From NCBI GenBank assembly GCA_031549385.1, contig JAVBPW010000002.1, positions 17,841-81,840 on the forward strand: 64,000 nucleotides of DNA, in the 5' to 3' direction. Under the pieces are notes generated by a model that saw nothing but the letters and a program-made list of their open reading frames with translations, was not told where the DNA came from and did no database searches. The translations under genes were made by a program, and so were the position numbers. Below, piece by piece: positions 7,491-44,918 of this stretch (position 1 is its first letter; every line of letters starts with the position of its first letter). The DNA comes from Alphaproteobacteria bacterium (lineage in GTDB: Bacteria; Pseudomonadota; Alphaproteobacteria; Rs-D84; SZUA-605).

Positions 7491-9128
7491 TTATTTTATT
7501 TTTTCTAATGATTCATTTCTGTTAAAGAAATAAATTAATGCAGCTACACAACCAAATGATAATTGAAAGCCAACATTAAATAATGAATATGGGGAAATGA
7601 GCAATATTATAAATGCTGAAATGGCTAAATTGTTTAATGAAATTCCACGTCGGTTTAAAAGAATTGCTATTAATCCTATTGTTGTCATTATGAATGTTCG
7701 CTGAATTGGTACTGCACTTCCTGAAATAAAAAAATATGCTAAAGTTATAAAAAATGTTATTACCGCTGCTATTTTCTTTGTGTCTTTTAATTGAGAATTT
7801 GAAATTAATAATAGGCTATATCTGAAAATGAAAAAGCAAATAATAGTCAATAGTCCCATGTGGAAGCCAGATACTGATAGTAAGTGAGAAATACCAGCTT
7901 GCTTAAATGAATTGTCTGAGTCTTCTGGCATTGCATAACGTTCGCCTGTTATTAATGTCGTTGCAAATAAGCGCTCTTCTTTATTTTCACCTTTTAACAT
8001 TTTTTTTATTAACCCATAGCGAAACTTTTCTATTTTTTCTTTTGGATTTAATGGAGGAGTGTCTATTATTTCTATGCCACTGTCTATGTATCCAACTGCG
8101 TCTATGTTTTTATAGTATGCATAAGTTTTGAAATCAAAACCATGCTTGGTTGATTTATTTGATAATGGAAATAATGTTGCTCTGAAGCAAATATTTTGGC
8201 CTATATCTAAGTTTTCATGATTTTCATTTACTTTTAAACGAATCCTTTTTACGTATTGGATACCGTCTTTGTTTAAAGCTTTTAAATTGTTTAAAACTAA
8301 ACGTCTTGATTTATCCATTACTTGAATTTGTTCTATATGAGCTTCAAAGTCTTTTTTAAATACTGGGTATCTTAAAAATTCTCTTTTGTTTAATACTGTG
8401 TGAAGATACATTGTTGATATACCTAACGCAAAAGATAATATCAAATAACCAAAAAATGTAGCAGGGCGATATTTAAAGCTTGGTAGGTATGGAATTTTAT
8501 GATTGTGTTTATATTGTCTTGGAAAGAGTATTCTTTTTAATCCTTGTAAATTGTATTTATCTAATAATTTTATTGTATATTTTGTTAGTTTCTTTTTTAT
8601 GGATTTTAAACTTTCTATAAATTTTCTGAAATAAAAGAATGGTTGTGAAAGCATTTCCATTAAATATTTAAATGGAGTACTGTTTGTTAGCCATTTCAGT
8701 GGTAGAATAGAAAAGAAACCTCTTACCATTGACCATAAAATTCTGAATAATGTGCCTGACATGAAGTATCTTAAATATGAGAATACTTTTAAAACTATGG
8801 TAATTGAGAATATCAAAGCAAACAATTGTGAGAATAATGGTAATAATATTAACAAGAATAAGAATTTTAAAATTTTAAAGAAAACAAATTTAATTATTTT
8901 CATTGGTGTTAGTAAGTTATATCTTAATATTACTTTTCTTATTGTGTTTGAAAAAAGACTGCAAATAAATAAAAGTAAACAAAGAATTATTATAGCATAA
9001 ACAAAAAATGTTTTTAGTTTGAAGAAGATTGCTATACCTAATGCAAAAAAAATTATTAGCAAAAGGGGAAAGTTTTGTTTTTCCCCATTTGCAAAGTTTG
9101 ATAATTTTCTTGTTAGATGTTTAATCAT
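7491..9128 (-). CDS. comEC: ComEC/Rec2-family DNA internalization channel, short form
   Basis: 545 aa. Very hydrophobic N-terminus, OB-fold-like segment (IRLKVNENHENLDIGQNICFRATL), competence-domain motif GISHLLSVSGFHMGLL. No metallo-beta-lactamase domain. Confidence 0.75.
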   Translation of the reverse strand: MIKHLTRKLSNFANGEKQNFPLLLIIFFALGIAIFFKLKTFFVYAIIILCLLLFICSLFSNTIRKVILRYNLLTPMKIIKFVFFKILKFLFLLILLPLFSQLFALIFSITIVLKVFSYLRYFMSGTLFRILWSMVRGFFSILPLKWLTNSTPFKYLMEMLSQPFFYFRKFIESLKSIKKKLTKYTIKLLDKYNLQGLKRILFPRQYKHNHKIPYLPSFKYRPATFFGYLILSFALGISTMYLHTVLNKREFLRYPVFKKDFEAHIEQIQVMDKSRRLVLNNLKALNKDGIQYVKRIRLKVNENHENLDIGQNICFRATLFPLSNKSTKHGFDFKTYAYYKNIDAVGYIDSGIEIIDTPPLNPKEKIEKFRYGLIKKMLKGENKEERLFATTLITGERYAMPEDSDNSFKQAGISHLLSVSGFHMGLLTIICFFIFRYSLLLISNSQLKDTKKIAAVITFFITLAYFFISGSAVPIQRTFIMTTIGLIAILLNRRGISLNNLAISAFIILLISPYSLFNVGFQLSFGCVAALIYFFNRNESLEKIK

Positions 9129-9933: not shown

Positions 9934-11013
9934 TTACATTTGTTGTGTCAATTGTTCTTGCATTTCAAATGTTCCAAAGATAACCCAAGCTATTACCACA
10001 GCAATTAAAAGGATTGCAACGGAGTTCAAAATATTAGCAATTGATTCAATTTTTTTAATAGAGTCTTCTAAGAACCCGTCTGCTACATTTTCTAATGCTT
10101 CTTCGAAATTATCAAGTTCCGAATAAATTTGTAAGTCGCCTATTAATTCAGTATCTGGAAAGTTTTGTTTACTTAGATATAAAGCGTTTCCTAAGTTTTC
10201 TCCTTCAGAAACAAATGATAATACTTTTCCTATTCTGTCTGCTAGGTATGGAGATGAATTGTCTTTTAAAATTCCTAATGCTTTTGATATAGGTGTTCCT
10301 GATTTTACAAGTGATGATAAAGATAGTAACCAAGATACTCCTGTAAACATTCTGTATAATGACCATGGTGGAAATTTATCAAATATTACTCTGAATCTGT
10401 TTGTCCAAATTGGCATTGTAATAGCTATTGCTGCTACGATTACAATTATTACTATTGGAAATAACCACCAATATAGTGCCATAAAATCTGATACTCCTGC
10501 AAGAGTTAATGCAGTACCTGTCCATATGATTTTTTTACCAGCAGCTTCTGTTAGTGGTGGAACCAAATATAAACTTACCATAATTAAAATTAAGAATACT
10601 AAAACAAGCAAAAATAATGGATAAGCAAATGCGCTTATAATTGGGCCTATGATTCTTGATGATCCATCTGATACTTTTATAACGTGAACTAATGCTTTTT
10701 CTAAACGAGCTACATCACCAACTGTTAACATCAACTTTTCACGAGCTGGAACCCAATTGCCTAATGCATCTCCAAAAGTTTCTCCATTTTCTAATCCTCT
10801 TTGCCATGATGAAATTGCTATTGCCATAGGTTCAGATGGCTTTTTACCATTTACTGATGCAATATTCCATAATCTGTCTAATGATGCCATAAGAGTAAAA
10901 TTATTGCGTAATAGGGCAGCTAGTTTTTTATAAAATTTCAAACGTTCTGTGTTTGAACTTTTAACCATAAATTTTGCGTATGCTAAATTTAAACTTTGAA
11001 GTGATAATGCCAT
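9934..11013 (-). CDS. GspF/PilC-family inner-membrane platform protein (R64 PilR-like)
   Basis: 359 aa, polytopic, with two GspF-like cytoplasmic segments. Its start overlaps the stop of the upstream GspE-type ATPase. Confidence 0.75.
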   Translation of the reverse strand: MALSLQSLNLAYAKFMVKSSNTERLKFYKKLAALLRNNFTLMASLDRLWNIASVNGKKPSEPMAIAISSWQRGLENGETFGDALGNWVPAREKLMLTVGDVARLEKALVHVIKVSDGSSRIIGPIISAFAYPLFLLVLVFLILIMVSLYLVPPLTEAAGKKIIWTGTALTLAGVSDFMALYWWLFPIVIIVIVAAIAITMPIWTNRFRVIFDKFPPWSLYRMFTGVSWLLSLSSLVKSGTPISKALGILKDNSSPYLADRIGKVLSFVSEGENLGNALYLSKQNFPDTELIGDLQIYSELDNFEEALENVADGFLEDSIKKIESIANILNSVAILLIAVVIAWVIFGTFEMQEQLTQQM

Positions 11014-12671
11014 TAGAAAAGCTCCTTTTCATCTAAGAATCCACACCAACGTTCTACATCGTCAATTGATACTAATCCTTTTAACATTTTTTCTATTGCA
11101 TATTCTCTAAGAGAAACTCCACCAAGCTCTTTTTTCCAATATTCAATTGCTTCGTCTGTTTTTCTTTCTAAGGCTAGGCCTAATAGTTTTGCGTCAGGAA
11201 GAATTATTTCAAATACTCCAATACGACCTGTTACACCTTTACCTTTACATACATCGCAACCTGGTCCTTTTGTATATGCCATGTCTGCTTTTTGTTGGCC
11301 TATTGTTTTTAAAGCTCTTCTGTATGCTGGATTATCTGTTGCACCTCTTAATGATTTTTTGCAATTAGGGCAAAGTCTTTTAAATAATCTTTGTGATACT
11401 AATCCTTTCATTAAAGATGCATCGCCTAATTTAAAATCTTCTACACCCATATCAAGAAGACGAGTTAAAATTGCTATCGCAGAATTAGCGTGAAGTGTTG
11501 TCCAAACGTTGTGACCTGATAAAGCTCCACGGAATGTTAAATCCGCTGCTGATTTTGTTCTGATTTCTCCAACCATCATTGCGTCAGGGTCTGAACGAAG
11601 AGCAGCTGCAAGAGCAGATGTAAACGCTGCATCTTTTTCTTCTTCTGTTGCAGTGTTTGTCACAGGCATTTGGCGTGATCCTGGAATAGGGTATTCAGGT
11701 GGATCTTCCACTGTGATTAAATTTATTTCATAATTTCTTTCTTTTAACATTAGAATCATGTTTTGTTGTAAAGTAGTAGATTTTCCAGATCCTGTTGGAC
11801 CAGCTATGATACATAATCCTGTTGGAAAGCTACGCATTTTGTAAAATAATTCTAATTGATGTGGTTCTAATCCTAAAGTTTCTAATCCTCTTCCTGCATC
11901 TTGGCTTGCATACAAAAGTCGCATAACCAAATATTGAGAACCAAAGGCTATTGGATTGAATTGTAAACGTATAGCTAATACATTTCTTGGAAGATATAAA
12001 TCTTTTGAACCACGTAGTGGAGTATCTCCTAATTTTTGTGCTGCTTGGAATTCATTTTGAGCATAGTTTGAGTCAGATATATCAGCAGATGCAAATACAG
12101 AACGTACAAATGCTTCACCCCATGTGCCATCAAATTCCATCATCTTTTGCATTGTACCATCCATTCTGAAAAGAATTGTTGTTTCATTTCCTACAATTAC
12201 GTGAATATCTGATACTCCGCGTTCTGCTGCTTTTGAAACTATATCTACATAGTCTTTTTGAATTTGATTATTAAACGCGTCTAAATTAGGAATTAAATTT
12301 TTCTTTTTTAAATTTTCTTTGTAGATTTCATTTAAATTTCCAAGAGAAGTATATACAGTGCTTGTTATTTTATTTTTTGTTTTATTAAGTAATGAAACAA
12401 AACTTAAAACTTGTCCATCATATTTATGAGTGTTTGAAATTACTAATGTTCCATCTGAAAAATATGCTAAAATGTTTTTTGTTTCATGATTTAATGCTAG
12501 CTTTTCACCTGTATCTGTTAGAAGGCGATTGTTTGGAACAAATAATGTTTTGATTAATTCTGCGGCAGTAATTTCACGTGCTACAGTTTTTGGTTTTTCT
12601 GTTGCAGGTTTTGCAGCGTCTGTTTTTGTAACAGGTTGTGCTGGTGTAATAGGTGTTTTTTGTTCTGCCAT
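11013..12671 (-). CDS. GspE/PilB-family assembly ATPase (R64 PilQ / TcpT / BfpD-like)
   Basis: Walker A GPTGSGKST, Asp box, Walker B, His box TLHANSA, and the tetracysteine CPNC...CDVC cluster. Confidence 0.9.
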   Translation of the reverse strand: MAEQKTPITPAQPVTKTDAAKPATEKPKTVAREITAAELIKTLFVPNNRLLTDTGEKLALNHETKNILAYFSDGTLVISNTHKYDGQVLSFVSLLNKTKNKITSTVYTSLGNLNEIYKENLKKKNLIPNLDAFNNQIQKDYVDIVSKAAERGVSDIHVIVGNETTILFRMDGTMQKMMEFDGTWGEAFVRSVFASADISDSNYAQNEFQAAQKLGDTPLRGSKDLYLPRNVLAIRLQFNPIAFGSQYLVMRLLYASQDAGRGLETLGLEPHQLELFYKMRSFPTGLCIIAGPTGSGKSTTLQQNMILMLKERNYEINLITVEDPPEYPIPGSRQMPVTNTATEEEKDAAFTSALAAALRSDPDAMMVGEIRTKSAADLTFRGALSGHNVWTTLHANSAIAILTRLLDMGVEDFKLGDASLMKGLVSQRLFKRLCPNCKKSLRGATDNPAYRRALKTIGQQKADMAYTKGPGCDVCKGKGVTGRIGVFEIILPDAKLLGLALERKTDEAIEYWKKELGGVSLREYAIEKMLKGLVSIDDVERWCGFLDEKELF

Positions 12672-12672
12672 T

Positions 12673-13695
12673 TTAATTTTGCTTCATTTTTAATGGGTAT
12701 AATTTTTTACCTTTTTCAAAAACTATTCCATCTTGTGGAGATATAGAGCGAACTATTATTCCATCTCCTATTGTTGTTCCTTGACGAACAGTTATTTTTT
12801 TGTTTTGTGGTATATTTAATAAAGTTGCTGTTAAATTTCCACCAATTCCCATAATGCTTTTAATTTCATACACAGATGTTACTTCAAATGTCTTAGAAGA
12901 ATCTTCTGGTTGAACTGGAGTGCTTACTTCTGATACATATGATGGACCTGCATCAGATGGTGCTGAACTTACTGATTCAGAACTTTCTGCACTTACTTGT
13001 TCAAGTTTTCTGATTTCATTATCTAATTTCAATTGGTCTCTTTTTAATTTAGATAATTCAAGTTCCATCTGTTTGTGTTTTGTTTCTAAATCAAGTACAA
13101 ATTTTTCATTTTCAAGTTCTGAAAGTTTTGTAAATAATGAGTCTGAAAAATCTAATGATAGTAATGGATGTAAATATTTTGAATCTGATGGAATTACTAT
13201 TAATTCATTTTTTTCAACTACATCAACAGGTTGTCCATTTATACTTGGAGCAGCTGAAGAATTTGTGAATTGTTCAAAAGGTATATTTGTTGGCTGAACA
13301 GGTTGTTCAGGCATAGGTTGTGGTTGTTGTGGAGCTTCAACAAAAGGAATAGGTTGTTCCTCCATTGGTTGTGGAGCAGGTTCAACAGCTGGTGCTGGTT
13401 GTATTTCTGGAGCAGGCTGAACAATTGGAGCAGGTTGAACTTGAGGTTCATCTGGAAATACTTCGTTTTGTGCAAGAGATGATAATATTTCTTGTTTTTG
13501 TGGGTCTTGCTCTACATATAGTTCATCTTCTGGAATATCTTCGTTTGTGATGTCTACTGATAATGGCATATCGTCCATTAAATCAATTGGTTCTGATGGT
13601 GCAGGCATTGATACGTTAATTTCTTCTTGTGCAGATAAACGACTAGACGCGCATATTACTGCTATTAAAAAAAACAATATACTAATCTTTTTCAT
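12673..13695 (-). CDS. PilP-like type IVb pilus biogenesis protein with a long Pro-rich/coiled-coil insert
   Basis: Signal peptide. PAPxxQP repeats (PAPIVQPAPEIQPAPAVEPAPQP), a coiled coil, and a C-terminal PilP-like beta domain (IKSIMGIGGNLTATLL...RQGTTIGDGIIVRSISPQDGIVF). Confidence 0.55.
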   Translation of the reverse strand: MKKISILFFLIAVICASSRLSAQEEINVSMPAPSEPIDLMDDMPLSVDITNEDIPEDELYVEQDPQKQEILSSLAQNEVFPDEPQVQPAPIVQPAPEIQPAPAVEPAPQPMEEQPIPFVEAPQQPQPMPEQPVQPTNIPFEQFTNSSAAPSINGQPVDVVEKNELIVIPSDSKYLHPLLSLDFSDSLFTKLSELENEKFVLDLETKHKQMELELSKLKRDQLKLDNEIRKLEQVSAESSESVSSAPSDAGPSYVSEVSTPVQPEDSSKTFEVTSVYEIKSIMGIGGNLTATLLNIPQNKKITVRQGTTIGDGIIVRSISPQDGIVFEKGKKLYPLKMKQN

Positions 13696-15019
13696 AAACA
13701 CGCCCTTCAACCTTCCATGTCTGAGACTTTTGATCCCAAACTATTTCTTTAAACTCAGCACTTCCTATTGACCTAAATAGCTTTGCCCACTCTATTATAT
13801 CCAATTTTGAGTTAAAAGTAAACTTCATAAATGAAAATTTTTTAATAATATTTCCATTTATCGCTTGGTCTTCTAAAAATTCAGTCTGAATTTTGATTGA
13901 AGTTCGTTGAGAAAAGGCTAAAAACCTCTTCTTTACTATATCTTTTGGTTCTGTTGGAGCTATACTTACCTTTGTAAATTTTGGTTGTGATATTGAAGTT
14001 GATACATTTTCTCCGTTATCGTCAAATTTTACATTAACATTGCCTAAGATTGGTTTGAAATATTTATCAAACGCTTTTGAAATTATAGAAATATCACCTT
14101 GATTTCTTGTGTATGATGCTTCTATAGTTGTTGGATTACATGTAATAGTTTTTAAATCCCATCCAAATATTGGTTTTGAATATAGAGATACTGCCTTTTT
14201 ACAAATTGCAGCAAATTCTATTATATCATCCATTTCTTGCCATGGAAGAGTTGGGTCTTTTTGTTTTACTATTAAAGGTTGCTCAGGTTGAACTGTTGCA
14301 GAAGTTCCTGGAGCTGTTTGTACAGTTTGTCCTTCAGGTTGACCTTTATCTAATTTTTCTGGCTTATACTTTTCAAGTAATGCAGAATCTTGTTTAGGCT
14401 TTTTTGGAGCAGGGCTTATTAATCTTAATAAAGAGTTTTTATATACTAATGCTATAAATAAAACAAAGATAGAAATCAAAATTATGTTTTGAAGAGTTGA
14501 TTGTTTTTTTAATGGCAATAATCTTTGATAGCTTTCTCTTTCAAATAATTCTTCTATTGTTGTTGGTGATGAACCATCAACTCTCCATTCAACTGGTGCG
14601 ATTTTATATGCCCAATCTGGAAGTTCTAATAATTTTAAATAATGTGCTTTTGCTTCATCTTCTGTTTCAAATAATGCATCATCTTCTGGTAAGATAAGTC
14701 CGTTTCTTACTGCACATAACCAATAACCTTGTTGTGTTTTTAAACAAGATAAAATTGATGGTTTGTCTTTTAATACTGATGTTAATGAAATAGCTGCTAC
14801 AAATTGTTTATCTCTGTGACCTAGTTCACGGAATGCTAGTCCATATTGAGCATTACCAAATGTTTTTATGCAATAATAGTTTGCTTGTGGGACTAATGAC
14901 TTTGATGTTTTTTCTATTTCAAGAAGAGGGTTCTTCTTGTCGTTTAATGGTTGCCAAAAAAGTCCTACTGCGTAAGACTTATTGGCAACTATTATAACTT
15001 GTTTAAAGTTCTTGTTCAT
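13682..15019 (-). CDS. PilO-like (type IVb, PilO2-type) bitopic membrane protein
   Basis: 445 aa. N-terminal AVGLFWQPL motif, a single central TM helix, and a position between the secretin and PilP-like genes, as in R64/ICE pil operons. Confidence 0.5.
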   Translation of the reverse strand: MNKNFKQVIIVANKSYAVGLFWQPLNDKKNPLLEIEKTSKSLVPQANYYCIKTFGNAQYGLAFRELGHRDKQFVAAISLTSVLKDKPSILSCLKTQQGYWLCAVRNGLILPEDDALFETEDEAKAHYLKLLELPDWAYKIAPVEWRVDGSSPTTIEELFERESYQRLLPLKKQSTLQNIILISIFVLFIALVYKNSLLRLISPAPKKPKQDSALLEKYKPEKLDKGQPEGQTVQTAPGTSATVQPEQPLIVKQKDPTLPWQEMDDIIEFAAICKKAVSLYSKPIFGWDLKTITCNPTTIEASYTRNQGDISIISKAFDKYFKPILGNVNVKFDDNGENVSTSISQPKFTKVSIAPTEPKDIVKKRFLAFSQRTSIKIQTEFLEDQAINGNIIKKFSFMKFTFNSKLDIIEWAKLFRSIGSAEFKEIVWDQKSQTWKVEGRVYEKD

Positions 15020-15054
15020 ATTTCCCCTTCACAATATGAAGGAACTACCAATCT

Positions 15055-16629
15055 TTAGTAGGTTGGTGTTCCCCAAGCTTCAGAATGTCTTTCTTCTGGA
15101 TCAAGTGGGGATGCTATGATTTGTGGTGTTATCATGATAACTAGGATATTTCTTTCACTTATTGTTTCTCGTCCCCCTCCAAGAGTCATAAAGTTAGGAT
15201 CACCTACACCATATCTTGTATCTGAATTATTACCTTTTTCGAATCCAGTTAATATCAATGTTTGACCTGATTTTAACACAGCTTCTTGTAAGAATGATCT
15301 TTCTTCAATTCTTGGAAGTTGTAAGTCAATATTGTTGATAGTCATCTTATCGAAGCCTAATAATTCTCTTAAAGACATTTTAAACATTAATAGTAATCTT
15401 CCATTTTCAAAAATGTTTGGTAGAAGTTGTAAGTTAAAACCTACATTTTCTTCTTTAGGTTCTACACCTGTTTGACCTTGATTTTGAGTGAATTCACTAA
15501 TTTCAATCTTATCAATGTATTTAAATGTTTGTGTGTTGTTAACTGGAGCAACTCTGTTATTACGTGTTGTTACAGTTGCTGTTGTTACTACAGAAATTTG
15601 ACCTTGTTTTGCAAGTGCTTGGATAGCTGCAGATGTTCCAGAGAAGTCTTCAAGAGCTCCTGTTCCATTTACAATAGCCATGTTTCCACTTTGCATAAAT
15701 GGTGTTTGTGAGAATGGATTCCTGTATGATCCGTTACCTGTTCCAAGTTCAAGTCCAGCTGTGTTTTTGAAAAGTAAATTTAAGTCTAATCCTACAGTGT
15801 TACTATCGTTAATTGTAACTTGTAAAACTCTTACAGTAATAGATACCATTTTTGATAATCTTCTGTTCTTTTCTTTTACATATTGGCTTACTTTTTCAAT
15901 TGTTGCAGGTGTTCCTGTTACGGTGATTGTTCCTGTTGAAACTGCAACTGTTGCTCCACCATCTGGAACTAATGTTGCTAATTCAGTTTTAATATCATTC
16001 CATTCATCTAATTCAATATTTGTTGTTAGAGAATCGCCTGTTTCACCTTTTTTACCAAGTGACATATTTGAATTATATGATGACTTTGTTGCAAGTGAAT
16101 AGATAGTAAATGTTTTTGTTAACTTTTTGAACATAGTAATTTTACGTCCATCATAATACCAATTTACTCCTGTTTCTGTTCCGATTTTATTTAAAAGACC
16201 AGAAAGGGTTCCTGTATATGATAGTTCCATAGAATCCATATTTTTTGGATCAACAGAATCGTCAAAATCAATTAAAATGTCTGTCAATGCAGTTATTTGA
16301 TTTGCAATATCATTTAATTTTTCTTGCTTGTCTGTTACAATTGTTATTCCTAATGGAGTTTCTAATCTCTTAGGTAATGGTTCTCTGTTTTTTCTGTTTA
16401 CAGATTGATTTCCTAACCAGATGTCTTTTGAAACTTCAACTGTGTCATATTTCAATTGCTTTGCAGGATTTTTTGCACGTTCTAAATTTTCTGCAGCTTC
16501 TTTGTATTGATCAGCAACTTCTGTGTTTACTGACTCAGTTGCCTGAGGATCGCAAGAACACATAAAGAACACTGAAGAAATTACTAGTAAAGAAGTTACT
16601 AATTTATTTTTATTAATCTGCATTTTCAT
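15055..16629 (-). CDS. secretin, lipoprotein type (R64 PilN / BfpB-like)
   Basis: Signal peptide with Cys (FFMCSCD). C-terminal secretin domain (VTTRNNRVAPV..., GFNLQLLPNI..., RNILVIMITPQII). Confidence 0.85.
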   Translation of the reverse strand: MKMQINKNKLVTSLLVISSVFFMCSCDPQATESVNTEVADQYKEAAENLERAKNPAKQLKYDTVEVSKDIWLGNQSVNRKNREPLPKRLETPLGITIVTDKQEKLNDIANQITALTDILIDFDDSVDPKNMDSMELSYTGTLSGLLNKIGTETGVNWYYDGRKITMFKKLTKTFTIYSLATKSSYNSNMSLGKKGETGDSLTTNIELDEWNDIKTELATLVPDGGATVAVSTGTITVTGTPATIEKVSQYVKEKNRRLSKMVSITVRVLQVTINDSNTVGLDLNLLFKNTAGLELGTGNGSYRNPFSQTPFMQSGNMAIVNGTGALEDFSGTSAAIQALAKQGQISVVTTATVTTRNNRVAPVNNTQTFKYIDKIEISEFTQNQGQTGVEPKEENVGFNLQLLPNIFENGRLLLMFKMSLRELLGFDKMTINNIDLQLPRIEERSFLQEAVLKSGQTLILTGFEKGNNSDTRYGVGDPNFMTLGGGRETISERNILVIMITPQIIASPLDPEERHSEAWGTPTY

Positions 16630-17284
16630 CCTCCAATGTTTTTACAACTAATACTTTGTTTCCGAAGTAGAACTTTGCATATGGAGGAGGTGATGCTCTT
16701 CCAAATGATCTTACTAATGCTGATGCTACGTCAGTAAATCTTCCTTTAAATATAGCAGACGCTTTTAAAGGATATTCTCTGTTTGTACTCCAAACAATTT
16801 CCCATCCTTCAAGAGTTGCCCATTCTTCGATAATTTCACGAACTGTTTTTCCATCTTTTGCAACCCATTCGCGAATCATGTCAGGACGATATTCTTTTTC
16901 GCCTTCCATTTGTGATACACCATATTCGTTTATAGTATATACTTCTTGTTCGCTAATCATTGGTGCTACTGGAGCGTTAGATCCAGAAAGAGTTTGATAT
17001 CCATTGTTTTCAATTAATTTAACATTAGATAATTTCATAACACTATCTTCTTCACCATTAATTAAAAAATTATCAGGAGGTGTAAGAGATGCTCCACCAC
17101 TCCATCCATCAGTTGGTGCGTTATTCATATCTTGAGCAGCATGTCCACCAAAATTTAGTGTTTTGTTTTGTGAATAATAATCAGCTTCAGAGCCAATCAA
17201 AGGCCAAGCTGGTGGTGTGTCTGAATCTGCAAATGCAGGGACACATAATAGTGCACAAATAGCAATAATAATTTTGAATTTCAT
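16613..17284 (-). CDS. PilL/TcpQ-domain periplasmic protein
   Basis: Signal peptide. C-terminal segment GKTVREIIEEWATLEGWEIVWSTNREYPL...FKGRFTDVASALV...FGNKVLVV resembles the TcpQ/PilL domain. Overlaps the secretin start by 17 nt. Confidence 0.5.
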   Translation of the reverse strand: MKFKIIIAICALLCVPAFADSDTPPAWPLIGSEADYYSQNKTLNFGGHAAQDMNNAPTDGWSGGASLTPPDNFLINGEEDSVMKLSNVKLIENNGYQTLSGSNAPVAPMISEQEVYTINEYGVSQMEGEKEYRPDMIREWVAKDGKTVREIIEEWATLEGWEIVWSTNREYPLKASAIFKGRFTDVASALVRSFGRASPPPYAKFYFGNKVLVVKTLEDENAD

Positions 17285-17408: not shown

Positions 17409-19541
17409 CTATTTTTTCATCAAAAATATTGGTAGTGGAGATGGTTGAGGAATCGCAGCTTTCTCTTTTAATTTGTCATCTTTAAACCATAATGGTGTTT
17501 CTGCTTCAATTGGATAATCCATTTCACCTTGAATTAATACATAATGTTTTCCAAATCCTATGTTTAGCATATCTTTTGCAGATATAATTCTGCTTTTAAC
17601 CATATTCTTTTCTGTTTCAACTGTATTTCCTTTTTCAGTTTTTTCATTCCAGATTTCATCCCAACCTTTTTTGAATTTGTTTTCAATATCTGTCATGTGA
17701 CCTACTAGTTTTTCGAATCTTTCAGCTGCTTCATTATTGTTTTGTCTAAATATGATTTTTGCTGCTGTATTTGATATCATTGTTTCTACTGCTTCTTTTC
17801 CATATCGTTCTTCAATTTGATTTAAATCTTGTCCAATTAAAAGATATGATACTTTTTGTCCACGACCAATTGCAGGTCCGTTTATAACTGCGTCTAATTT
17901 TGGCATTTGTGGAAATTCGTCAAGTACAAATAATGTTGGGAATGGTCCCATTTTTCCATCACGTTCACTTGTTGAATCTGGTTTGTTTGTTATTAAATAA
18001 CGTGACATTAATTCTATAAAGATAGCAGAGATTTTTCCTAGTGCTACTGCGTCTGTTTGGTTTACACTTAAATAAACAGTTACAGGTTTCATTTTTCCAT
18101 CACGAGGGTCTATCATTCCTCTTAAATATTTAAATTTAATATCATTGCGCATTGTTCTTTGACGAACAGCTTCGTTGTTGAAAATATTTATTTCTGTTAA
18201 GAATGTTGATATAACTGATGCTCTTTCTTTGTCACCTGCATTTGCTAGTTTTGTTAGTTCTTGAATTGCACGACGGGAGTAATTAAAACGTTGTCCTTCT
18301 TTTACTAAACTTTGTAAAATTTCTTTCATTGCGTCTGTTTGACCTGCACTATAATCACCCATTTCTTTTCTTTTATTTATTGCGTCTGCAGTTTTGATTT
18401 GAAGATTTGTTATTAAGTCTAACATCATTGGAAAACAAGCTTCTTTGCCTGTCCATTCTTGTGGAATATTATCCCATGTTCCAACTGGTACAAAATTTGA
18501 TGCATTTAATTTTCCTTCACGAAGAAGTACTAATGCACCTGATGCTAGGTTATCAACCATAGACATATAATATGAAGCTAATAATCTTGCATCTTCTGTA
18601 TCAAATGTGTGGTCTTGCATTCTTTTTAAGAAGTAATCACTTGCTCTTGCTCTTTCACATTTTGATACTATTAAATGTACGAATCCTGTTAAGGCATTTC
18701 GGCCTGCTATTGACCAATATGTGTCACCTTTAGTATTTGATTGAATCATTACGTTTACCATTGATTCTACATACATATCTCTTTCTGGTCCAAGTGGTGG
18801 AATACTATCTGGGGCTAATGGATTCCATGATGGGTAAAAAATTCCTTTTTGTGGGTCGTCTTGTTTTCCCCAATCTATTGTAAATGATACTCCTATTTTT
18901 CCACGGTATCCTGAAGTCATTTCAGAAAGTTCTGGCTTTGGGTCGTTTACTATCATACTTACGGTATCATTTTCAAATAATGTTGCTGCCACAATACCGG
19001 CTGATTTTCCAGTTCCTGGAGGAGCAAAACAAAGTACAGAAAATGTTTCGTTTAATTTTATGTATGTCTTTTTTATTTTTCCAAGAACAAATATGAATCC
19101 ATCTTTTACTATTTTCATGTTTTTAACATCATCTTCAGTTGCTTTATGTCCATCGCCATATGCTTTTACATATTTTTTGTATGGATTTAATTTTCCTATA
19201 AAATATTTTGCTACTGGAGCTGTGAAAAGTGGAAGGAATATTATTCCATGAAACATATCTGGAGCTGTAAAAAATGATGGGAGCCATACATATAAATAAT
19301 AACGGAAGATTTCTAATCCACCTGTTTTTACAATTTCTTCCATATATCTTGAAAATAAAATAGGAAAGTTGTTATCAAAACCATTGCGAGCTAAATATTC
19401 TGCAGGGATTGCAAAAATACAAGCTATGTAAACTAAAACATAGTAAAGAGTCCAGGCTTTTATTCTCCAAATAATGCTCTGGGTCTTTTCTTTGCTTTTT
19501 TTATCAAATGATTTTTCAAATCTTTTTTCAATTAGTGCCAT
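17409..19541 (-). CDS. VirD4/TraG-family type IV coupling protein
   Basis: 710 aa. N-terminal TM helices, Walker A FAPPGTGKSAG, Walker B-like LFVLDEFPQMPKL, and overall TraG/VirD4-like layout. Confidence 0.75.
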   Translation of the reverse strand: MALIEKRFEKSFDKKSKEKTQSIIWRIKAWTLYYVLVYIACIFAIPAEYLARNGFDNNFPILFSRYMEEIVKTGGLEIFRYYLYVWLPSFFTAPDMFHGIIFLPLFTAPVAKYFIGKLNPYKKYVKAYGDGHKATEDDVKNMKIVKDGFIFVLGKIKKTYIKLNETFSVLCFAPPGTGKSAGIVAATLFENDTVSMIVNDPKPELSEMTSGYRGKIGVSFTIDWGKQDDPQKGIFYPSWNPLAPDSIPPLGPERDMYVESMVNVMIQSNTKGDTYWSIAGRNALTGFVHLIVSKCERARASDYFLKRMQDHTFDTEDARLLASYYMSMVDNLASGALVLLREGKLNASNFVPVGTWDNIPQEWTGKEACFPMMLDLITNLQIKTADAINKRKEMGDYSAGQTDAMKEILQSLVKEGQRFNYSRRAIQELTKLANAGDKERASVISTFLTEINIFNNEAVRQRTMRNDIKFKYLRGMIDPRDGKMKPVTVYLSVNQTDAVALGKISAIFIELMSRYLITNKPDSTSERDGKMGPFPTLFVLDEFPQMPKLDAVINGPAIGRGQKVSYLLIGQDLNQIEERYGKEAVETMISNTAAKIIFRQNNNEAAERFEKLVGHMTDIENKFKKGWDEIWNEKTEKGNTVETEKNMVKSRIISAKDMLNIGFGKHYVLIQGEMDYPIEAETPLWFKDDKLKEKAAIPQPSPLPIFLMKK

Positions 19542-19673: not shown

Positions 19674-20012
19674 ATGAATAAAAGATTTTTGCCATTTTTC
19701 GCACTATTAGGAATATTTGGTTTATGTGCTGTGTTGCCAGCAGATGCTTTTGCACAAGCTGCAGTTTTGGCTAAACAAGCAGGTAATGTTTTTAAAAATA
19801 TTAGAACATTAGTTTATATTGCAGCTGCTATTGCTATTATATGGCAAGGTGCAGATATGATTATGAATGGTGGAACAGCTATTAATTGGGCGCCAATAAG
19901 AGGTATTGCTTATGGTCTTATTCTTGTTTATGCAGCAAGCTGGATTGTACAAGGTTTAGTTGCTCTTACAGGTGGTGGCAATGAAGGCGGTATAATCGGA
20001 GCTAATTTCTAG
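19674..20012 (+). CDS. VirB2/TrbC-like small pilin-type membrane protein
   Basis: 112 aa from ATG 19674 (AAAGGAG 8 nt upstream). Signal peptide ending AFAQA, two hydrophobic helices, C-terminal ALTGGG tail similar to VirB2. Confidence 0.45.
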   Translation: MNKRFLPFFALLGIFGLCAVLPADAFAQAAVLAKQAGNVFKNIRTLVYIAAAIAIIWQGADMIMNGGTAINWAPIRGIAYGLILVYAASWIVQGLVALTGGGNEGGIIGANF

Positions 20013-20033
20013 AAATAGAATTTTAAAAAATAA

Positions 20034-20061
20034 AATCCCCTGACAAAAAGGGGATTTTTTT
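20034..20061 (+). terminator. intrinsic terminator
   Basis: AATCCCC-loop-GGGGATT hairpin followed by a T-run. Confidence 0.7.
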
Positions 20062-35006: not shown

Positions 35007-38000
35007 ATGATAAGAAAAATCCTCCCGCTTGTATCCTTAATTTTATTATCAACAAATGTTTTCGCTAAAGAATTAAAAGTAACTAGAATTACTCCAAATG
35101 GTGATGATGTTGAACCTATGTCTCAAATTGTTATTACTTTTAATCAAGATGTTGTTCCAATTGGTGAAATGTCACGTAAGAAAGAAGAAATTCCTGTTAA
35201 GATTACTCCTAATTTAGATTGTAAGTGGAGATGGATTGATAATTCAAATCTTGCTTGTATGCTTGAAGATGGAGATATGAAGGCGGCTACTAAGTATTCT
35301 GTTGAAGTTGGAGCTGTAAAAACTTTAAATGGAGAAGAGTTGCAAAAAACATATGAACATTCTTTTATTACTCGTCGTCCTTTAGTTAGTTATTCTTACT
35401 TCCATCAATGGCAAGGTGCAAATATGCCTATATTTGTTGTGAATTTCGATCAACCTGTACAAATAGATAGCCTTGAAGATGCTTTTTATTTTCAAGATAG
35501 CGCTTCTTCAAAAAAATATGATGCTAAAGTTGAGGTAAGAAAAGAAGAGTCTAGTAGAGTGTTTTATGTTTATCCTGCTGTAGAACTTGCAGCTTATAGA
35601 ACTTATTCTCTTTATACTACTGGAGAATTTTCTTCAAAGTTAGGAGATGAAAAAAGAAAAAATGAAAAGAAAGAATTACAAAAATTTGCTACTTTTCCTG
35701 CAACCCCAAAATTCTTAGGGTTCTCATGTTCAGATGGTGATAATAAGGATGTAAAAGATTATAATGTAGAGGATTGTGATCCGTCTAATTATTCAACTAT
35801 GGTATTTAATGTGCCTGTTAAGGCTAATGCATTGAAGTATGCTAAAGTTACTCCTTCTATTTCAATTGATGAAGAAGAGAATCAAAATCAAAAATATAGC
35901 AATGATAGTTATACTCCAATGATTTGGGATAATAGCCATAGTGTGGGGAAAAAGTATTATGTTTATTTGCCTAGATTCTTGAAGTCTGGGGTTGAATATA
36001 AAATCAGTTTTGATAGTAAATTAAAAGATGTATTTGGAAGAGGTTTTGAAGATGGAGTTGGAACCATTTCATTTGGACCGAGAAGTCCTTATGTTAATGT
36101 GAAGTATTCTATGTCAGTTTTGGAAAAACAGGAACAAACTGAAATTCCTGTGTTTATTACTAATATTTCAAATTTAGACTTTGACTGTGTTAGTGTGACT
36201 GCTGATGGAGTTAAGAAAAAAAGTGAAACTAAAAAATATGATTATCCAAAAAATATAGCTGTTGGAACTTCACTTGGAGTTAGAAAGTTACTTTCAGATA
36301 AATCGGGTATTGTTGCTTGTAAATTAACTTCAAATGATTTGAAAAAGGATAAAAAAGAAGTTTTTGTTTCTATTGTTACCCCTTGGAACTTAAGTATTAA
36401 GGTTGGACATTATAATTCTTCTGTTTGGGTGACTGATATGAAAACTGGACTTCCTGTTGAAGGTGCTAAGGTTTCTTTTTATAAGAGTACTACAAAAAAT
36501 ATTGGTGACAGAGAAGATTTAGATTCAAAAAAGACTGATAAAAATGGTCTTGCAATTCTTGGTGGGGTTAAAGAAATGGATCCTAAACTTGAATTTATTA
36601 ATTCTTGGGATAATGAAAAAGATAAACTTTTTGTTAGAGTAGAAAAAGGTGGTGAACTTGCTATTATGCCATTTACTTATGATTTTAAAGTTTGGATTGA
36701 TGGTATTCCTACTTATTTAGAAAGGGAAAATTCTCATATTAAAGTTTGGGGAATTACTCCACAAGTTGTTTATAAAAAAGGCCAAGTTGTTGATTTTAAA
36801 CTTTTTGTTAGAGATGATTTGAATGAAACTTTAGGATTGGCACGTAAGAAGAAAAGATTCTTGTTTATACCTTATTATAAAACTCCTTCTTTAACTGTTA
36901 CTGTTGTAGATCCCCTTGGAAAAGAAGTTTATAAAAATTCTGGAGTTAAATTATCAAAACTTGGTACTTTTGTTGATGATTTCAAATTGAGCAAAACGGC
37001 TGTTTCTGGAACATATATGATGAAGGCATCTATTGATGATGCAAAGTATTCATCTTTGTATCCTTTAGAATTTGTGGTTTCTGATTTTAATGCTTCTAAT
37101 TTTAAAGTGGAAACTTTATTGAGTGCTAAATCTTATAAGTCTGGAGATACATTGAAAGTGTCTACTGAGGCTAGTTTGCTTTCTGGAGCTCCTTATACTG
37201 CAAAAGAAGCAAGAATTAATGTTGAAGTGCAACCTAGTCATTTTGATGTAAGTAATCCTTTGTTATATAAATATAATTTTCCATATCCTTCATATGATGA
37301 AAAGAATGTTACTGTATTAAGTGAAGATTTTGCATTGAGCACAAAAGGAAAGGCAGAGGCTTTGGTTAAACTGAAAGATTATGATATTCCTTATGCTAAA
37401 ATTATTGTGGAAAGTTCTGTGAAAGACGATAATGGTAAGGCTATTGCTTCATCTTCTGTTGCTGACTTTTTTGGAGTAGATAGATTTATTGGAATAAGAA
37501 ATACTGATTTTGATTACAGAGCAGGAAAAGAATTCCAAATTGAATATGCTGTTGTTGATACTAAAGGTGAAATTGTTAGTGCAGCTTCTGTAAATGGAAC
37601 TCTTGAAATTTCTGAAGTTTCTTTTTCTAAGATAAAAGGAAGTGGAAATGTTTATGAAGAAAAACGTGAACAAAAATGGAGTAAGGTTGCATCATGTAAA
37701 GGAACTTCTTCGATTTCTGAACAATTATGTAAACTTAAAGTTAATAAAAGTGGAGAATATAGAATAACTTTTGAAGGAAAAGATACTAAAGGAAAAAAAG
37801 TTAAAAATTCTTCAGAATTTTATGTTACAGGAAAAGACTATGTTCTTTGGGCTAAAGATAAAGGAGATGTTTCTTTTGTTGATCTTGTGCCAAATAAATC
37901 ATCATATAAAATTGGAGATGTAGCTAAATTTATGGTGAAAAATCCATATCCTGGTGCTTATGCTTATGTTTCAATTGAGAGAAATGGAATTATAGAAACA

Positions 38001-40691: not shown

Positions 40692-42777
40692 TATTCTTGT
40701 TGTACTTGTCTTATTTGTATTTATTACAATAATAAATCTTTCAAAACTTCCTTCAAATTTAAATGTGGGAAGTTTTGAGAGTTCTCGAATTCAACTTATT
40801 GATAGAAATGGGAAAGTTTTATCTACTGTCTATGATGAAAGTCTGAATTTGGAAGATAATTTAAAACTTTATGAAATACCTGAATTTTTTAAATCTGCTT
40901 TTATAATATCAGAAGATAAGCGTTTTTATTCACATTATGGGGTTGATGTTTTGGCTAAAATTAATTCTGTGTATAAGGCTGTGCGTGGAAGCGATGTTAG
41001 AGGGGCAAGTACTGTTACAGAACAAGTTGTTAGGATTTTAAAGCCTAGGAAACGAAATTTATTTTCCAAATGGTTGGAATTTATTGATGCTTTAAGATTG
41101 GATGCTAAATTTAGTAAAGATGAAATATTTGAGTTTTATTTAAATCAAGTGCCTTATGCTTCTAATAGACGTGGAGTTAAGCAGGCGGCTAATTACTATT
41201 TTGGAAGGTCAGTTGATAGTTTGTCAGAAGAAGAAATGATTGCACTTGTTGTATTAATTCGAGCACCATCAAAATATAATTTATATAAGGGATATCATAA
41301 GAGTTATTTGAAATCTATTAAGATTTTGGCTAATAAAATGGGAAAGGATATTGAAAAGGTTGATTTGCAAATTTATGAAAGAGAAGAAAGTGTTGATACA
41401 TTTCATTTTAATGATTTTGTGAAGGCTAATTTACAAACACTTGGAATTAATAATGGTAAGATTAAAACTACTATAGATATAAATATTCAAAAAGATGTGG
41501 GTGATTTACTTTATAATCATTTGCAAAATCTATCTAAATATGAGGTGAATAATGGAGCTGTTCTTGTAATAGACCGAGCAAGTGGTGAAATTTTAGCTTG
41601 GGTTAATGATAATTATCCAGAGACAGCTAGCTTTGATAAAGTGCTTGTAAAAAGGCAACCAGGTTCCTTACTTAAACCTTTTGCATATGCTAAAGCTTTT
41701 GAAAAAGGTTGGAATGGGGCTACTTTGATTGATGATGAGCCTATGATTACAAAAACTGCCAGTTCTGGGGTGCATAATTTTAAAAACTATAGTGAGAGAT
41801 TTTATGGTATGGTTAGTGCGCGACAAGCTTTGGGAAATTCTTTAAATATTCCTGCTATTAAAACTGCTGAATTTGTTGGAATGGAAGAGTTTTTGAGTTT
41901 TCTTCATGAAGTAGGTTTGACATCATTAGATCAAGATGCAGAATTTTATGGTGATGGACTTGTACTTGGTAATGGAGAAGTTTCTCTTTATGAAATTGTT
42001 AGAGCTTATATGGTTTTGGCTAATCATGGAAATTATAGTGATTTGAAATATTTAAAAGATTCTGTTGTTGATGGTAGAAAAGTAATTACTCCTGAAATTG
42101 CTGATATTATTAGCGATATATTATCTGATTCAAAGGCTAGAGAACTTGAATTTGGTGGAAGAGGGGCGTTAATGGATTTTCCAGTTCAGACGGCGATTAA
42201 AACGGGAACTTCTTCTGCTCATAGAAATGCTTGGTCAGTTGGATATAATAGCAAATATGTTGTTGGAATTTGGCTTGGAAATTTAGATTATTCTAAGACA
42301 ACCAGTTTGACTGGAGCTAATTCGACTATATCTTTGCTCAGGAATATATTTGCTAAATTAAATAAAGAAATTGATATAAAACCTCTCGAAGTGCATAAAA
42401 ATGTTTCATCACAAAAGGTTTGCTCAGATAAAGAATGTTTAGGATTAAAAAAAGAATTATTTGTTGGTGGGCAAAATGTAAAACAAAGTGTAGTTTTAGT
42501 TGCGCAAAAAGAAATGAAGCTTATTATGCCTACTGAAGGTATGAATGTTGCTATTGATCCACGTGTTCCAAAGAACTTACAAAAAATTAAATTCTATATA
42601 GATGCTAAACCAGAGAATTATAAGGTTGAATGGAAATTAAATGATAAAATTATTTATCAAGGAAATGATTCTGACTTCTTTTGGGCTATTGAAAAGGGAA
42701 GTTTTTTATTAGAAACTGTTATTTATGATGGAAGTAAAATAGTATTAAAGCAAAAGACTAATTTTTCGGTGAAATAA
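40648..42777 (+). CDS. pbpC: penicillin-binding protein 1C
   Basis: TM anchor, glycosyltransferase-51 motifs (SEDKRFYSHYGVD, RGASTVTEQ), transpeptidase motifs (SLLKP, SLN, KTGTS), PBP1C C-terminal domain. ATG 40648 overlaps the a2m end. Confidence 0.85.
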   Translation: MAKVHWIRLKYLKISILVVLVLFVFITIINLSKLPSNLNVGSFESSRIQLIDRNGKVLSTVYDESLNLEDNLKLYEIPEFFKSAFIISEDKRFYSHYGVDVLAKINSVYKAVRGSDVRGASTVTEQVVRILKPRKRNLFSKWLEFIDALRLDAKFSKDEIFEFYLNQVPYASNRRGVKQAANYYFGRSVDSLSEEEMIALVVLIRAPSKYNLYKGYHKSYLKSIKILANKMGKDIEKVDLQIYEREESVDTFHFNDFVKANLQTLGINNGKIKTTIDINIQKDVGDLLYNHLQNLSKYEVNNGAVLVIDRASGEILAWVNDNYPETASFDKVLVKRQPGSLLKPFAYAKAFEKGWNGATLIDDEPMITKTASSGVHNFKNYSERFYGMVSARQALGNSLNIPAIKTAEFVGMEEFLSFLHEVGLTSLDQDAEFYGDGLVLGNGEVSLYEIVRAYMVLANHGNYSDLKYLKDSVVDGRKVITPEIADIISDILSDSKARELEFGGRGALMDFPVQTAIKTGTSSAHRNAWSVGYNSKYVVGIWLGNLDYSKTTSLTGANSTISLLRNIFAKLNKEIDIKPLEVHKNVSSQKVCSDKECLGLKKELFVGGQNVKQSVVLVAQKEMKLIMPTEGMNVAIDPRVPKNLQKIKFYIDAKPENYKVEWKLNDKIIYQGNDSDFFWAIEKGSFLLETVIYDGSKIVLKQKTNFSVK

Positions 42778-44891: not shown

Positions 44892-44918
44892 TATAAATTG
44901 TTTTCATAGGAGGGAGAC

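Follow-up and report, generated by a model that had tools for sequence, protein, structure and literature searches.

A divergent VirD4-type coupling protein encoded beside type IVb pilus genes in an uncultured alphaproteobacterium from an invertebrate gut

Gene content of the locus

The DNA analysed here (the window) is a stretch of 64,000 nucleotides from contig JAVBPW010000002.1 (positions 17,841 to 81,840) of the Alphaproteobacteria bacterium assembly GCA_031549385.1, the source of which is an invertebrate gut metagenome. Its subject is a gene for a type IV coupling protein (T4CP) of the VirD4/TraG family, which is the first gene of a minus-strand string that continues with pilL-N-O-P-Q-R of a type IVb pilus and then with fabG and comEC, and which is accompanied by a divergent VirB2/TrbC-type pilin gene (Table 1). 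The protein belongs to a known kind, of which it represents a new and divergent subfamily, and the unusual part is its genomic organisation. The window T4CP is probably a component of a scattered type IV secretion system (T4SS), while there is a real and testable minority chance that it works outside a canonical T4SS.

Table 1. Features of the T4CP locus, in window positions.
Feature	Position	Strand	Basis
T4CP, VirD4/TraG family, divergent subfamily, 710 aa	17409..19541	-	ATG-initiated open reading frame (ORF), Pfam, AlphaFold2, Foldseek
Walker A / P-loop FAPPGTGKSAG, aa 172-182 of T4CP	18996..19028	-	motif position
Walker B box LFVLDEFPQMPKL, aa 537-549 of T4CP	17895..17933	-	motif position
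VirB2/TrbC-type T4SS pilin gene, 112 aa, from M37 of a 148-aa ORF	19674..20012	+	Pfam PF04956, architecture
Intrinsic-terminator-like hairpin, bidirectional, after VirB2-like gene	20032..20058	.	10-bp stem, T-runs on both strands
TcpQ-domain (PilL-like) lipoprotein gene	16613..17284	-	Pfam TcpQ, E 9e-17
PilN-family type IVb pilus secretin	15055..16629	-	Pfam Secretin; NCBIfam TIGR02520, 253.6 bits, cutoff 287.65 (just below)
PilO, R64/PAPI-type pilin accessory protein	13682..15019	-	Pfam PAP_PilO, E 3.7e-15
PilP-like protein, 345 aa	12673..13710	-	no Pfam match; NCBIfam pilP_fam, 27.2 bits, cutoff 34.65 (just below)
PilQ-type assembly ATPase, T2SSE/GspE superfamily (GspE/PilB-type)	11013..12671	-	Pfam T2SSE, E 6e-69
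PilR-type inner-membrane platform protein, T2SSF (GspF-type)	9934..11013	-	Pfam T2SSF, E 1.3e-20, two repeats

Identity of the coupling protein

The T4CP matches Pfam PF02534 (T4SS-DNA_transf) at 163.7 bits (E 8.8e-48), far above the gathering threshold of 20.1, and further matches were found to PF12696 (TraG-D_C; 66.1 bits) and PF10412 (TrwB_AAD_bind; 55.8 bits). Its N-terminus carries the membrane anchor of the family, with a hydrophobic peak at aa 27-52 and predicted helices at aa 14-117, ahead of the nucleotide-binding domain (NBD). In an alignment of 21 family sequences, residues G176, G178 and K179 of Walker A (GTGKS at aa 176-180) and residues D541, E542, F543 and P544 of Walker B are invariant. 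An AlphaFold2 model, for which the 21-homolog alignment served as input, is confident (mean pLDDT 81.7); in it, the membrane region (aa 14-117) is helical, the α/β NBD is split, and an all-helical domain is inserted at about aa 275-463.

Foldseek ranked Cagβ, the VirD4 homolog of Helicobacter pylori, first (E 2e-19) and TrwB second (E 6e-14), with the HerA/FtsK-like ATPases well behind and the HerA-type translocases at E 8.5e-7 or worse. These two best structural matches (Cag5, PDB 8DOL; TrwB of R388, PDB 1E9R, 1E9S and 1GKI; target TM-score 0.64-0.69) have the NBD and the all-α domain in common with the window protein at sequence identities of 11-15%, yet both are encoded and work with full T4SSs, unlike the T4CP as seen in the window. 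When the protein was compared with PDB sequences by phmmer, no match was found, whereas a profile of the family had Cag5 as its sole match (E 3e-6). As the Pfam match, the motifs and the fold ranking agree, the ORF is a bona fide T4CP and not a member of another P-loop family. The first-pass annotation, which was made from the sequence, is thereby borne out in its description of a 710-aa VirD4/TraG-family protein with N-terminal transmembrane helices, the Walker A motif and a second box (now placed as Walker B); the all-α domain that it proposed to inspect is present, and the other P-loop families that it had named as a possible refutation are excluded.

The protein was placed within the family by profile scores, by the annotation of its nearest homologs and by fold ranking. 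Among the NCBIfam equivalog models applied (NF010472, NF010424, NF010450, NF010453, TIGR02759, TIGR02767 and NF045973), the best scores were 124.7 bits for CD1115 (cutoff 250), 114.7 for VirD4 (cutoff 728) and 99 for IncP TraG (cutoff 674), the alignments covering the C-terminal half only, and the SXT/TOL TraD models of NCBIfam gave no match. Since these scores lie far under all curated equivalog cutoffs, the T4CP represents a divergent subfamily.

A VirB2-type pilin gene beside the coupling protein gene

Divergent from the T4CP gene and 133 bp upstream of its start is a gene with an AAGGAG ribosome-binding site before its ATG, the product of which has a signal peptide and two transmembrane or hydrophobic segments and matches Pfam TrbC (PF04956) above the gathering threshold (30.3 bits, E 5e-7; threshold 27.9). 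The earlier statement that the T4CP is encoded without any other T4SS core gene had overlooked this VirB2/TrbC-type gene and does not hold. Four members of the T4CP subclade have VirB2/TrbC pilin genes in the vicinity of the T4CP, namely the window and three related loci (loci carry L numbers hereafter): L003, where two tandem copies follow the T4CP and both exceed the Pfam gathering threshold; L004; and L016, where a solo VirB2-like gene lies 6.5 kb from the T4CP in housekeeping surroundings, between lipid A and polA genes. The adjacency of a VirB2-type pilin gene points to a VirB-type T4SS encoded elsewhere in the genome. A word-indexed search for VirB2 homologs, by which the T4SS was to be traced, returned the query itself only.

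The type IVb pilus genes

As the first-pass annotation had it, the T4CP gene heads a pil-like string. The pil genes are tightly packed, with overlaps or very small gaps, and follow the order PilL-PilN-PilO-PilP-PilQ-PilR of the R64/PAPI type, with TcpQ, Secretin, PAP_PilO, T2SSE and T2SSF all above Pfam gathering and with the PilP-like protein, between PilO and the ATPase, in the position that it has in R64-type clusters. The secretin is 26-28% identical to BfpB and to plasmid type IVB secretins. Between the T4CP gene and the TcpQ gene is a gap of 124 nt without a terminator-like site.

Among the scanned window ORFs, neither a pilin (PilS), prepilin peptidase (PilU), PilV or PilM gene nor any Peptidase_A24 or pilin match was found in connection with the string, and because fabG starts 64 nt after pilR there is no room in it for PilS, PilU or PilV. 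A strict pattern found no canonical prepilin motif in the window, a scan that is insensitive to R64-type pilins: the positive control, an R64-type pilin of Thalassospira without Glu5, was missed as well, so that absence of R64-type pilins is not claimable from motifs. This control, the annotated type 4 major pilin on a Thalassospira xiamenensis plasmid (L177, 20839-21414), is without the canonical Gly-1/Glu+5 prepilin signature and illustrates a class that simple motif scans miss.

Short, low-depth metatranscriptome contigs from the same study match the locus exactly, inside the T4CP gene (18593-18808), the secretin gene (15014-15177, 15810-16167 and 16215-16416), pilO (13777-13932), fabG and cysS, at comparable depths; none falls on the VirB2-like gene and none spans a gene junction. 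These contigs are weak evidence for expression of the T4CP and pil genes.

The ComEC competence channel gene (window 7491-9128, minus strand) lies two genes past the pil string, after fabG, and a plsY-dprA pair is found near TcpQ-secretin in L170 and L174. The proximity of comEC and dprA is a possible hint of a DNA-uptake pilus, and coincidental synteny may explain it.

Genomic context and search for secretion system genes

The window was searched in two ways. Pfam was run on 42 proteins, which are essentially all non-overlapping ORFs of at least 100 aa (the remainder being shadow ORFs opposite annotated genes), and phmmer was run on six-frame ORFs of at least 50 aa against VirB2, B3, B4, B5/6-like, B8, B9, B10, B11 and MobA proteins from two reference plasmids. 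The sole VirB11-like match was the PilQ-type pilus ATPase, and the earlier observation that the 64 kb holds no VirB4, VirB11, VirB6-10 or relaxase gene was upheld by both searches.

The locus is flanked by tyrS, cysS, fabG and comEC, and its GC content (0.32-0.34) is even with that of the remaining window (0.26-0.34). Pfam scans and ARAGORN found no integrase and no tRNA genes in the 64 kb, and a cysS-OmpA-UDG synteny is common to the window and to the relative with a 77% identical T4CP (L003). With no relaxase and no deviation in GC content either, a mobile-element origin was rejected: the locus is part of the chromosome, not a recently arrived mobile element.

An older origin of that sort was also weighed, in which a conjugative element with both a VirB-type T4SS and an R64-like thin pilus had integrated and the locus is what its continuing decay has left. 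Each of the two gene sets does have gaps in the window, where VirB4-B11 are lacking on the one side and pilin, peptidase and PilV on the other, and conjugative plasmids do pair a complete type IVb pilus cluster with a T4SS and a T4CP, the Thalassospira plasmid being one example and R64 and PAPI-1 combining such genes as well (PMC12857230). Decay is nonetheless very improbable, and is largely refuted by the conservation data: all seven ORFs and the VirB2 gene are intact, the T4CP motifs are invariant over hundreds of species, inheritance is vertical with conserved chromosomal synteny, no compositional anomaly, integrase or tRNA marks the locus, and RNA contigs fall on the T4CP and pil genes.

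Linkage to the pilus genes among relatives

In the metagenome-assembled genome (MAG) SZUA-605 (L004/L007), the T4CP of which is 52% identical, the genes follow one another as T4CP-TcpQ-secretin-PilO-unknown-ATPase-platform, as in the window, together with a divergent VirB2-like gene. In L008 the T4CP-TcpQ-secretin string begins and the contig then ends. In GCA_016937865.1 (L178/L170) the linkage is looser, with pilO-P-Q-R 3.6 kb upstream of the T4CP and, on the same contig of 36.7 kb, TcpQ-secretin at a distance of about 17 kb, and in L006 and L016 the T4CP is unlinked to pil genes. The 77% relative has the T4CP and its two VirB2 genes on L003 and the pil string on another contig, L169; joining the two was rejected, as the contigs do not overlap and each ends in a poly-G/poly-C artefact, and this genome was counted neither for nor against linkage. 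Those artefacts (L003 3′ end and L169 5′ end; JGI sample 3300042603) break the assembly where T4CP/VirB2 and pil might join.

Neighbour-joining trees placed the window, the pil-linked genomes and their relatives in one subclade of about eight genomes (six in the first tree) in ~70% of bootstraps, and the window with L003 in 100%. As the pil-linked T4CPs (window, L007, L008 and, at 3.6 kb, L178) are spread over several branches of this subclade, they fit a single ancestral cluster, and the linkage of T4CP and pil genes points to an old association that is eroding. The secretin family parallels the T4CP family in its distribution over lineages, at identities of 71%, ~50% and, in the gut clade, ~40%. 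TcpQ-secretin has separated from pilO-R in most relatives, where it lies amid housekeeping genes, as in the split arrangements of L170-L174. The lineage of the window thus disperses multi-gene systems, so that absence of a gene from a 64-kb window is weak evidence.

Distribution of the family and the gut-clade operon

Among 8000 scored candidates, 986 T4CP homologs were found; those listed are 44-77% identical to the window protein and bear names such as 'Rickettsiales bacterium' and 'Alphaproteobacteria bacterium' (MAGs). A scan of species-representative genomes placed relatives in at least 472 genomes, mostly from human, ruminant, bird and termite guts. The subfamily is chromosomally fixed and vertically inherited in uncultured, mostly gut-associated Alphaproteobacteria. 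About 160 loci, taken up to 10 kb either side of the T4CP (~2.5 Mb in all), were screened with the window pil and VirB2 proteins and with reference VirB proteins. In ~155 of the 160, the T4CP is a solo gene amid housekeeping genes, without a pil gene within 10 kb; VirB11-like matches were PilQ-type ATPases only, and the single pil match near a gut-clade T4CP (L076) is no more than chance would produce.

In the gut clade, the T4CP has partners of another kind. A polytopic membrane protein of 379-415 aa is encoded directly upstream in 67 of 82 loci, at a median gap of -15 bp (for example L024 8868-10004 and L034 8765-10009); its N-terminal transmembrane helices are joined by a Pro-rich linker to a conserved C-terminal domain, and a smaller paralog often precedes it (L034 8215-8694). 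Downstream in the operon are proteins of 210 and 153 aa, and further upstream are variable charged proteins of 500-690 aa. Representatives of these partners (clusters c1, c2, c5, c7 and c10) had no significant Pfam match. By its position the membrane protein recalls the dotM-dotL layout and could serve as a T4CP adaptor. RecF was considered as the conserved upstream partner and rejected, since an SMC_N/RecF-like gene is upstream in 5 loci only and the common partner is the membrane protein without Pfam match.

The charged proteins, encoded 1.5-2 kb upstream of the T4CP (L058 6591-8087, L066 5929-7929 and L073 6101-8158), have a short motif in common, as in DIISYMYREWFLAS and DVIKYMYEDWLLAG, are without Pfam match and may be substrates or effectors. 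A 673-aa protein (cluster c8; L078 365-2383) is encoded in 21 loci at ~7.5 kb upstream of the T4CP; its score for a eukaryotic-type protein kinase domain equals the Pfam gathering threshold.

About 3 kb downstream of the T4CP in L034 is a canonical type IV prepilin gene (15195-15815, minus strand; leader ...NQTG|ATMLETLGVL...), which abuts a 148-aa ORF and recurs at the same position in L028, L037, L039, L043, L046, L063 and L064. It was rejected as a second link between T4CP and type IV pilus, because it is not operonic with the T4CP, rng, maf and dksA intervening. The presence of this gene means that the lineage makes classical type IV pilins.

The gut-clade data bear on a further reading, in which the T4CP is an exapted orphan: its cognate T4SS has been lost, it acts in trans with the T4SSs of co-resident mobile elements or as a membrane translocase of DNA or protein with lineage-specific partners, and its adjacency to pil genes is historical and without function. 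Action in trans has a parallel in mobilisable plasmids, the T4CPs of which use the T4SSs of other elements. Such an orphan would suit several observations: the T4CP gene stands alone on the chromosome in at least 472 species genomes, its ATPase motifs are strongly conserved, it lies under all curated equivalog cutoffs, the gut-clade operon of Pfam-less partners is conserved, and the ~2.5 Mb of family neighbourhoods showed no T4SS gene. We nevertheless hold it to be unlikely. The VirB2-like genes beside the T4CP in the window subclade argue for a resident T4SS; the gut-clade partners were not found in the window or its subclade, so that the gut-clade operon cannot explain the window locus; and to our knowledge no T4SS-independent function has been established for VirD4-type T4CPs.

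Comparison with known systems

The closest homologs from cultured bacteria are T4CPs of plasmids of Erythrobacter (E. aureus YH-07, WP_115418087.1), Sphingosinicella (p1) and Microvirga (pMVF16-3), at 29-32% identity over 85-96% of the length and E values down to 5e-97. These T4CPs of VirB/D4-type (mating-pair-formation class T, MPF-T) plasmids are like the window protein in length class (~690-730 aa) and Pfam architecture. In all three cases the T4CP gene closes a complete VirB2-B3-B4...B8-B9-B10-B11 operon, and in Erythrobacter and Sphingosinicella a MobA/MobL relaxase gene is also found upstream. Since the closest cultured homologs end VirB operons, the subfamily descends from P-type VirB/D4 conjugation systems. 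The window T4CP, by contrast, is chromosomal, has only a VirB2-like gene as VirB neighbour and is followed by type IVb pilus genes.

The rvh system of the Rickettsiales is the textbook T4SS scattered in islets, chromosomal and with scattered or duplicated virB2 copies. It resembles the window family in its vertical inheritance and chromosomal location, and several relatives of the window are labelled 'Rickettsiales bacterium'. The difference is that VirB2 is the only VirB gene within 10 kb of the T4CP in any relative, and a virD4 gene contiguous with virB8-virB9-virB10-virB11, as for RvhD4, was seen neither in the window nor in related loci.

Type IVb pili of the same gene order occur with the I-type (Dot/Icm-like) T4SS of the IncI1 plasmid R64 (thin pilus, pilI-V), and the cluster of the T. 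xiamenensis plasmid, an alphaproteobacterial example, has the order TcpQ/PilL, PilN, PilO, PilP, PilQ, PilR identical to that of the window. Such R64-type plasmid clusters also carry a prepilin peptidase and a major pilin and lie amid I-type T4SS genes, whereas the window string does not; the secretin is only ~27% identical, and the window T4CP is not of the DotL/TrbC type. The R64 thin pilus is a contact device that aids transfer by the T4SS (PMC12857230).

In PAPI-1/ICE-type systems, a type IVb pilus is essential for transfer and the clear T4SS homologs are VirB4 and a VirD4-like T4CP only (Carter et al. 2010, reviewed in PMC12857230). A chimeric T4CP/T4P (type IV pilus) translocation model has been published for the PAPI-1 island, in which VirB4 and VirD4 cooperate with the type IV pilus (PMC12857230). 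Like the window, PAPI-1 has a pilL-N-O-P-Q-R cluster physically associated with a T4CP. It is, however, a mobile island with VirB4, relaxase, integrase, a full pilus set (pilS, T, V and M) and a TraD-type T4CP; in the window, no VirB4, relaxase, integrase or pilin gene was found, the T4CP is of the VirD4/TraG type and the locus is chromosomally fixed, so that VirB4, relaxase and integrase do not stand together on one island as they do in PAPI-1.

This precedent for pilus-dependent transfer with a minimal T4SS gene set (PMC12857230) lends some plausibility to a machine in which the window T4CP, perhaps with the VirB2-like protein, works directly with PilQ, PilR and PilN and exports DNA or protein without a VirB4-type channel. 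The order of VirB2 and, divergently, T4CP-pilL-N-O-P-Q-R is kept at 52% T4CP identity, T4CP-TcpQ-secretin recurs in L008 and pilO-R lies 3.6 kb off in L178; the gaps between the T4CP and pil genes are short and without terminator; T4SS channel genes were seen beside no member of the family; the string has no pilin gene of its own and a VirB2-type pilin gene adjoins it; the secretin and T4CP families diverge in parallel over the same lineages; and comEC stands two genes past the string. Against such a machine, the linkage is limited to three or four genomes of one subclade, the ~155 other loci being without a pil gene within 10 kb; the pil genes of relatives are split and lie amid housekeeping genes; the gut-clade T4CP has other conserved operon partners, which were not found in the window; and PAPI-1 keeps a VirB4, a relaxase and a TraD-type T4CP, none of which is present or matched in the window. 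We also know of no mechanism by which a type IV pilus machine would assemble VirB2 or accept T4CP substrates. We regard a direct partnership of T4CP and pilus, which would be a still more reduced version of the PAPI-1 model, as a minority possibility. The first-pass annotation had taken the T4P-type secretin for the only adjacent channel candidate. That claim survives in part: no T4SS is encoded locally and the linkage recurs (SZUA-605, L008 and, loosened, L178), but VirB2 is adjacent, the ancestry lies in VirB operons and ~155 of 160 loci are unlinked.

Other genes of the window

A giant protein of 3665 aa (window 47397-58394, plus strand), which combines numerous Chlamydia PMP repeats with an OmpA domain at its C-terminus, probably serves as a surface adhesin. 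At 35007-42777 (plus strand), a bacterial alpha-2-macroglobulin gene (1894 aa) is followed by one for a PBP1C-type transglycosylase/transpeptidase, a classic gene pair. An ankyrin-repeat protein of 228 aa (60055-60741, plus strand) would be a substrate candidate if a T4SS exists; such proteins are frequent among T4SS effectors of the Rickettsiales and Legionellales. Radical SAM and SPASM domains are encoded on adjacent ORFs ~230 nt apart (61871-62257 and 62490-62930, minus strand), which may be a split or frameshifted maturase, and an intact radical SAM/SPASM gene adjoins a sulfatase gene (43743-47276) in an arrangement that resembles an anSME-sulfatase pair.

Discussion

The reading that we favour, with moderate confidence, is that the protein is functional and serves a VirB-type T4SS as its VirD4-type coupling ATPase, that the remaining genes of this T4SS lie elsewhere in the genome, and that the pilus is a separate system to which it became linked in an ancestor. 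The T4CP would be an inner-membrane-anchored, presumably hexameric ATPase that binds relaxase-DNA or effector proteins as substrates and passes them on to a VirB-type channel. The other channel genes, including the VirB4-type machinery, would be dispersed elsewhere in the genome, and the adjacent VirB2-type pilin gene would be the one channel piece left nearby and the visible trace of the system. The type IVb pilus string would encode a separate type 4 filament machine, the linkage dating from the ancestor of the subclade and having been eroded by rearrangement. Were that linkage functional, the pilus would probably provide cell-cell contact for transfer by the T4SS, as the R64 thin pilus does, and would not be the outer-membrane conduit of the T4CP.

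Several observations weigh against a dispersed T4SS. Pfam and phmmer found no VirB4, VirB6, VirB8-B11 or relaxase in the 64 kb, and no VirB4, B8, B9, B10 or MobA match lies within ±10 kb of the T4CP in the ~160 related loci; a co-encoded VirB4-containing T4SS, which is the usual company of a T4CP, is thus lacking over all of this sequence, and the postulated VirB4-type machinery has been seen in no genome of the family, as judged from the window and these neighbourhoods. In the scattered rvh system of Rickettsia, virD4 stays beside virB8-B11. The T4CP is under every curated NCBIfam VirD4/TraG/TraD equivalog cutoff (115 bits against 728 for the best VirD4 equivalog). As to the VirB2 assignments, the profile-profile match of the window protein to plasmid VirB2 is weak (E 1e-3, probability 20%), the divergent upstream 114-aa gene of L004 has VirB2 architecture with a TrbC match below gathering (E 0.033), and the VirB2-like gene of L016, 6.5 kb from the T4CP, is below gathering as well. 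Neither a type IV pilin nor a peptidase is encoded within the pil string, which has just one pilin-like gene in its vicinity, that of VirB2 type. Finally, the seven-gene order T4CP-pilL-N-O-P-Q-R is kept down to 52% T4CP identity, with a T4CP-pil gap of 45-124 nt and no terminator, which hints at selection for co-expression.

In the searched literature on Hepatincolaceae, Holosporales and Rickettsiales genomes, no description of the T4CP-pil arrangement was found, nor was any description found, in the literature searched, of this T4CP subfamily or its genomic organisation. T4CPs are regarded as substrate receptors inseparable from a VirB4-containing channel. Here, a large and conserved subfamily, present in at least 472 species genomes, many of them from human, ruminant and insect guts, is detached from T4SS genes over hundreds of species, in one subclade heads a type IVb pilus operon that lacks a pilin gene, and in another has lineage-specific partners. 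There is a smaller chance, about that of a direct partnership with the pilus, that the family is a widespread chromosomal VirD4-like ATPase without a VirB4-type channel and that the window subclade holds a minimal hybrid translocon of T4CP and type 4 filament for DNA or protein, with a VirB2-like protein and a pilin-less pilus, which would go beyond PAPI-1.

If dispersed VirB genes are present in these genomes, the scattered T4SS in the style of Rickettsia would extend to free-living or extracellular gut Alphaproteobacteria and would offer a handle on their effectors or DNA transfer. If VirB genes are absent, this would be the first T4CP shown outside a T4SS, and the idea of a chimera between T4CP and type IV pilus would become directly testable in a minimal gene set.

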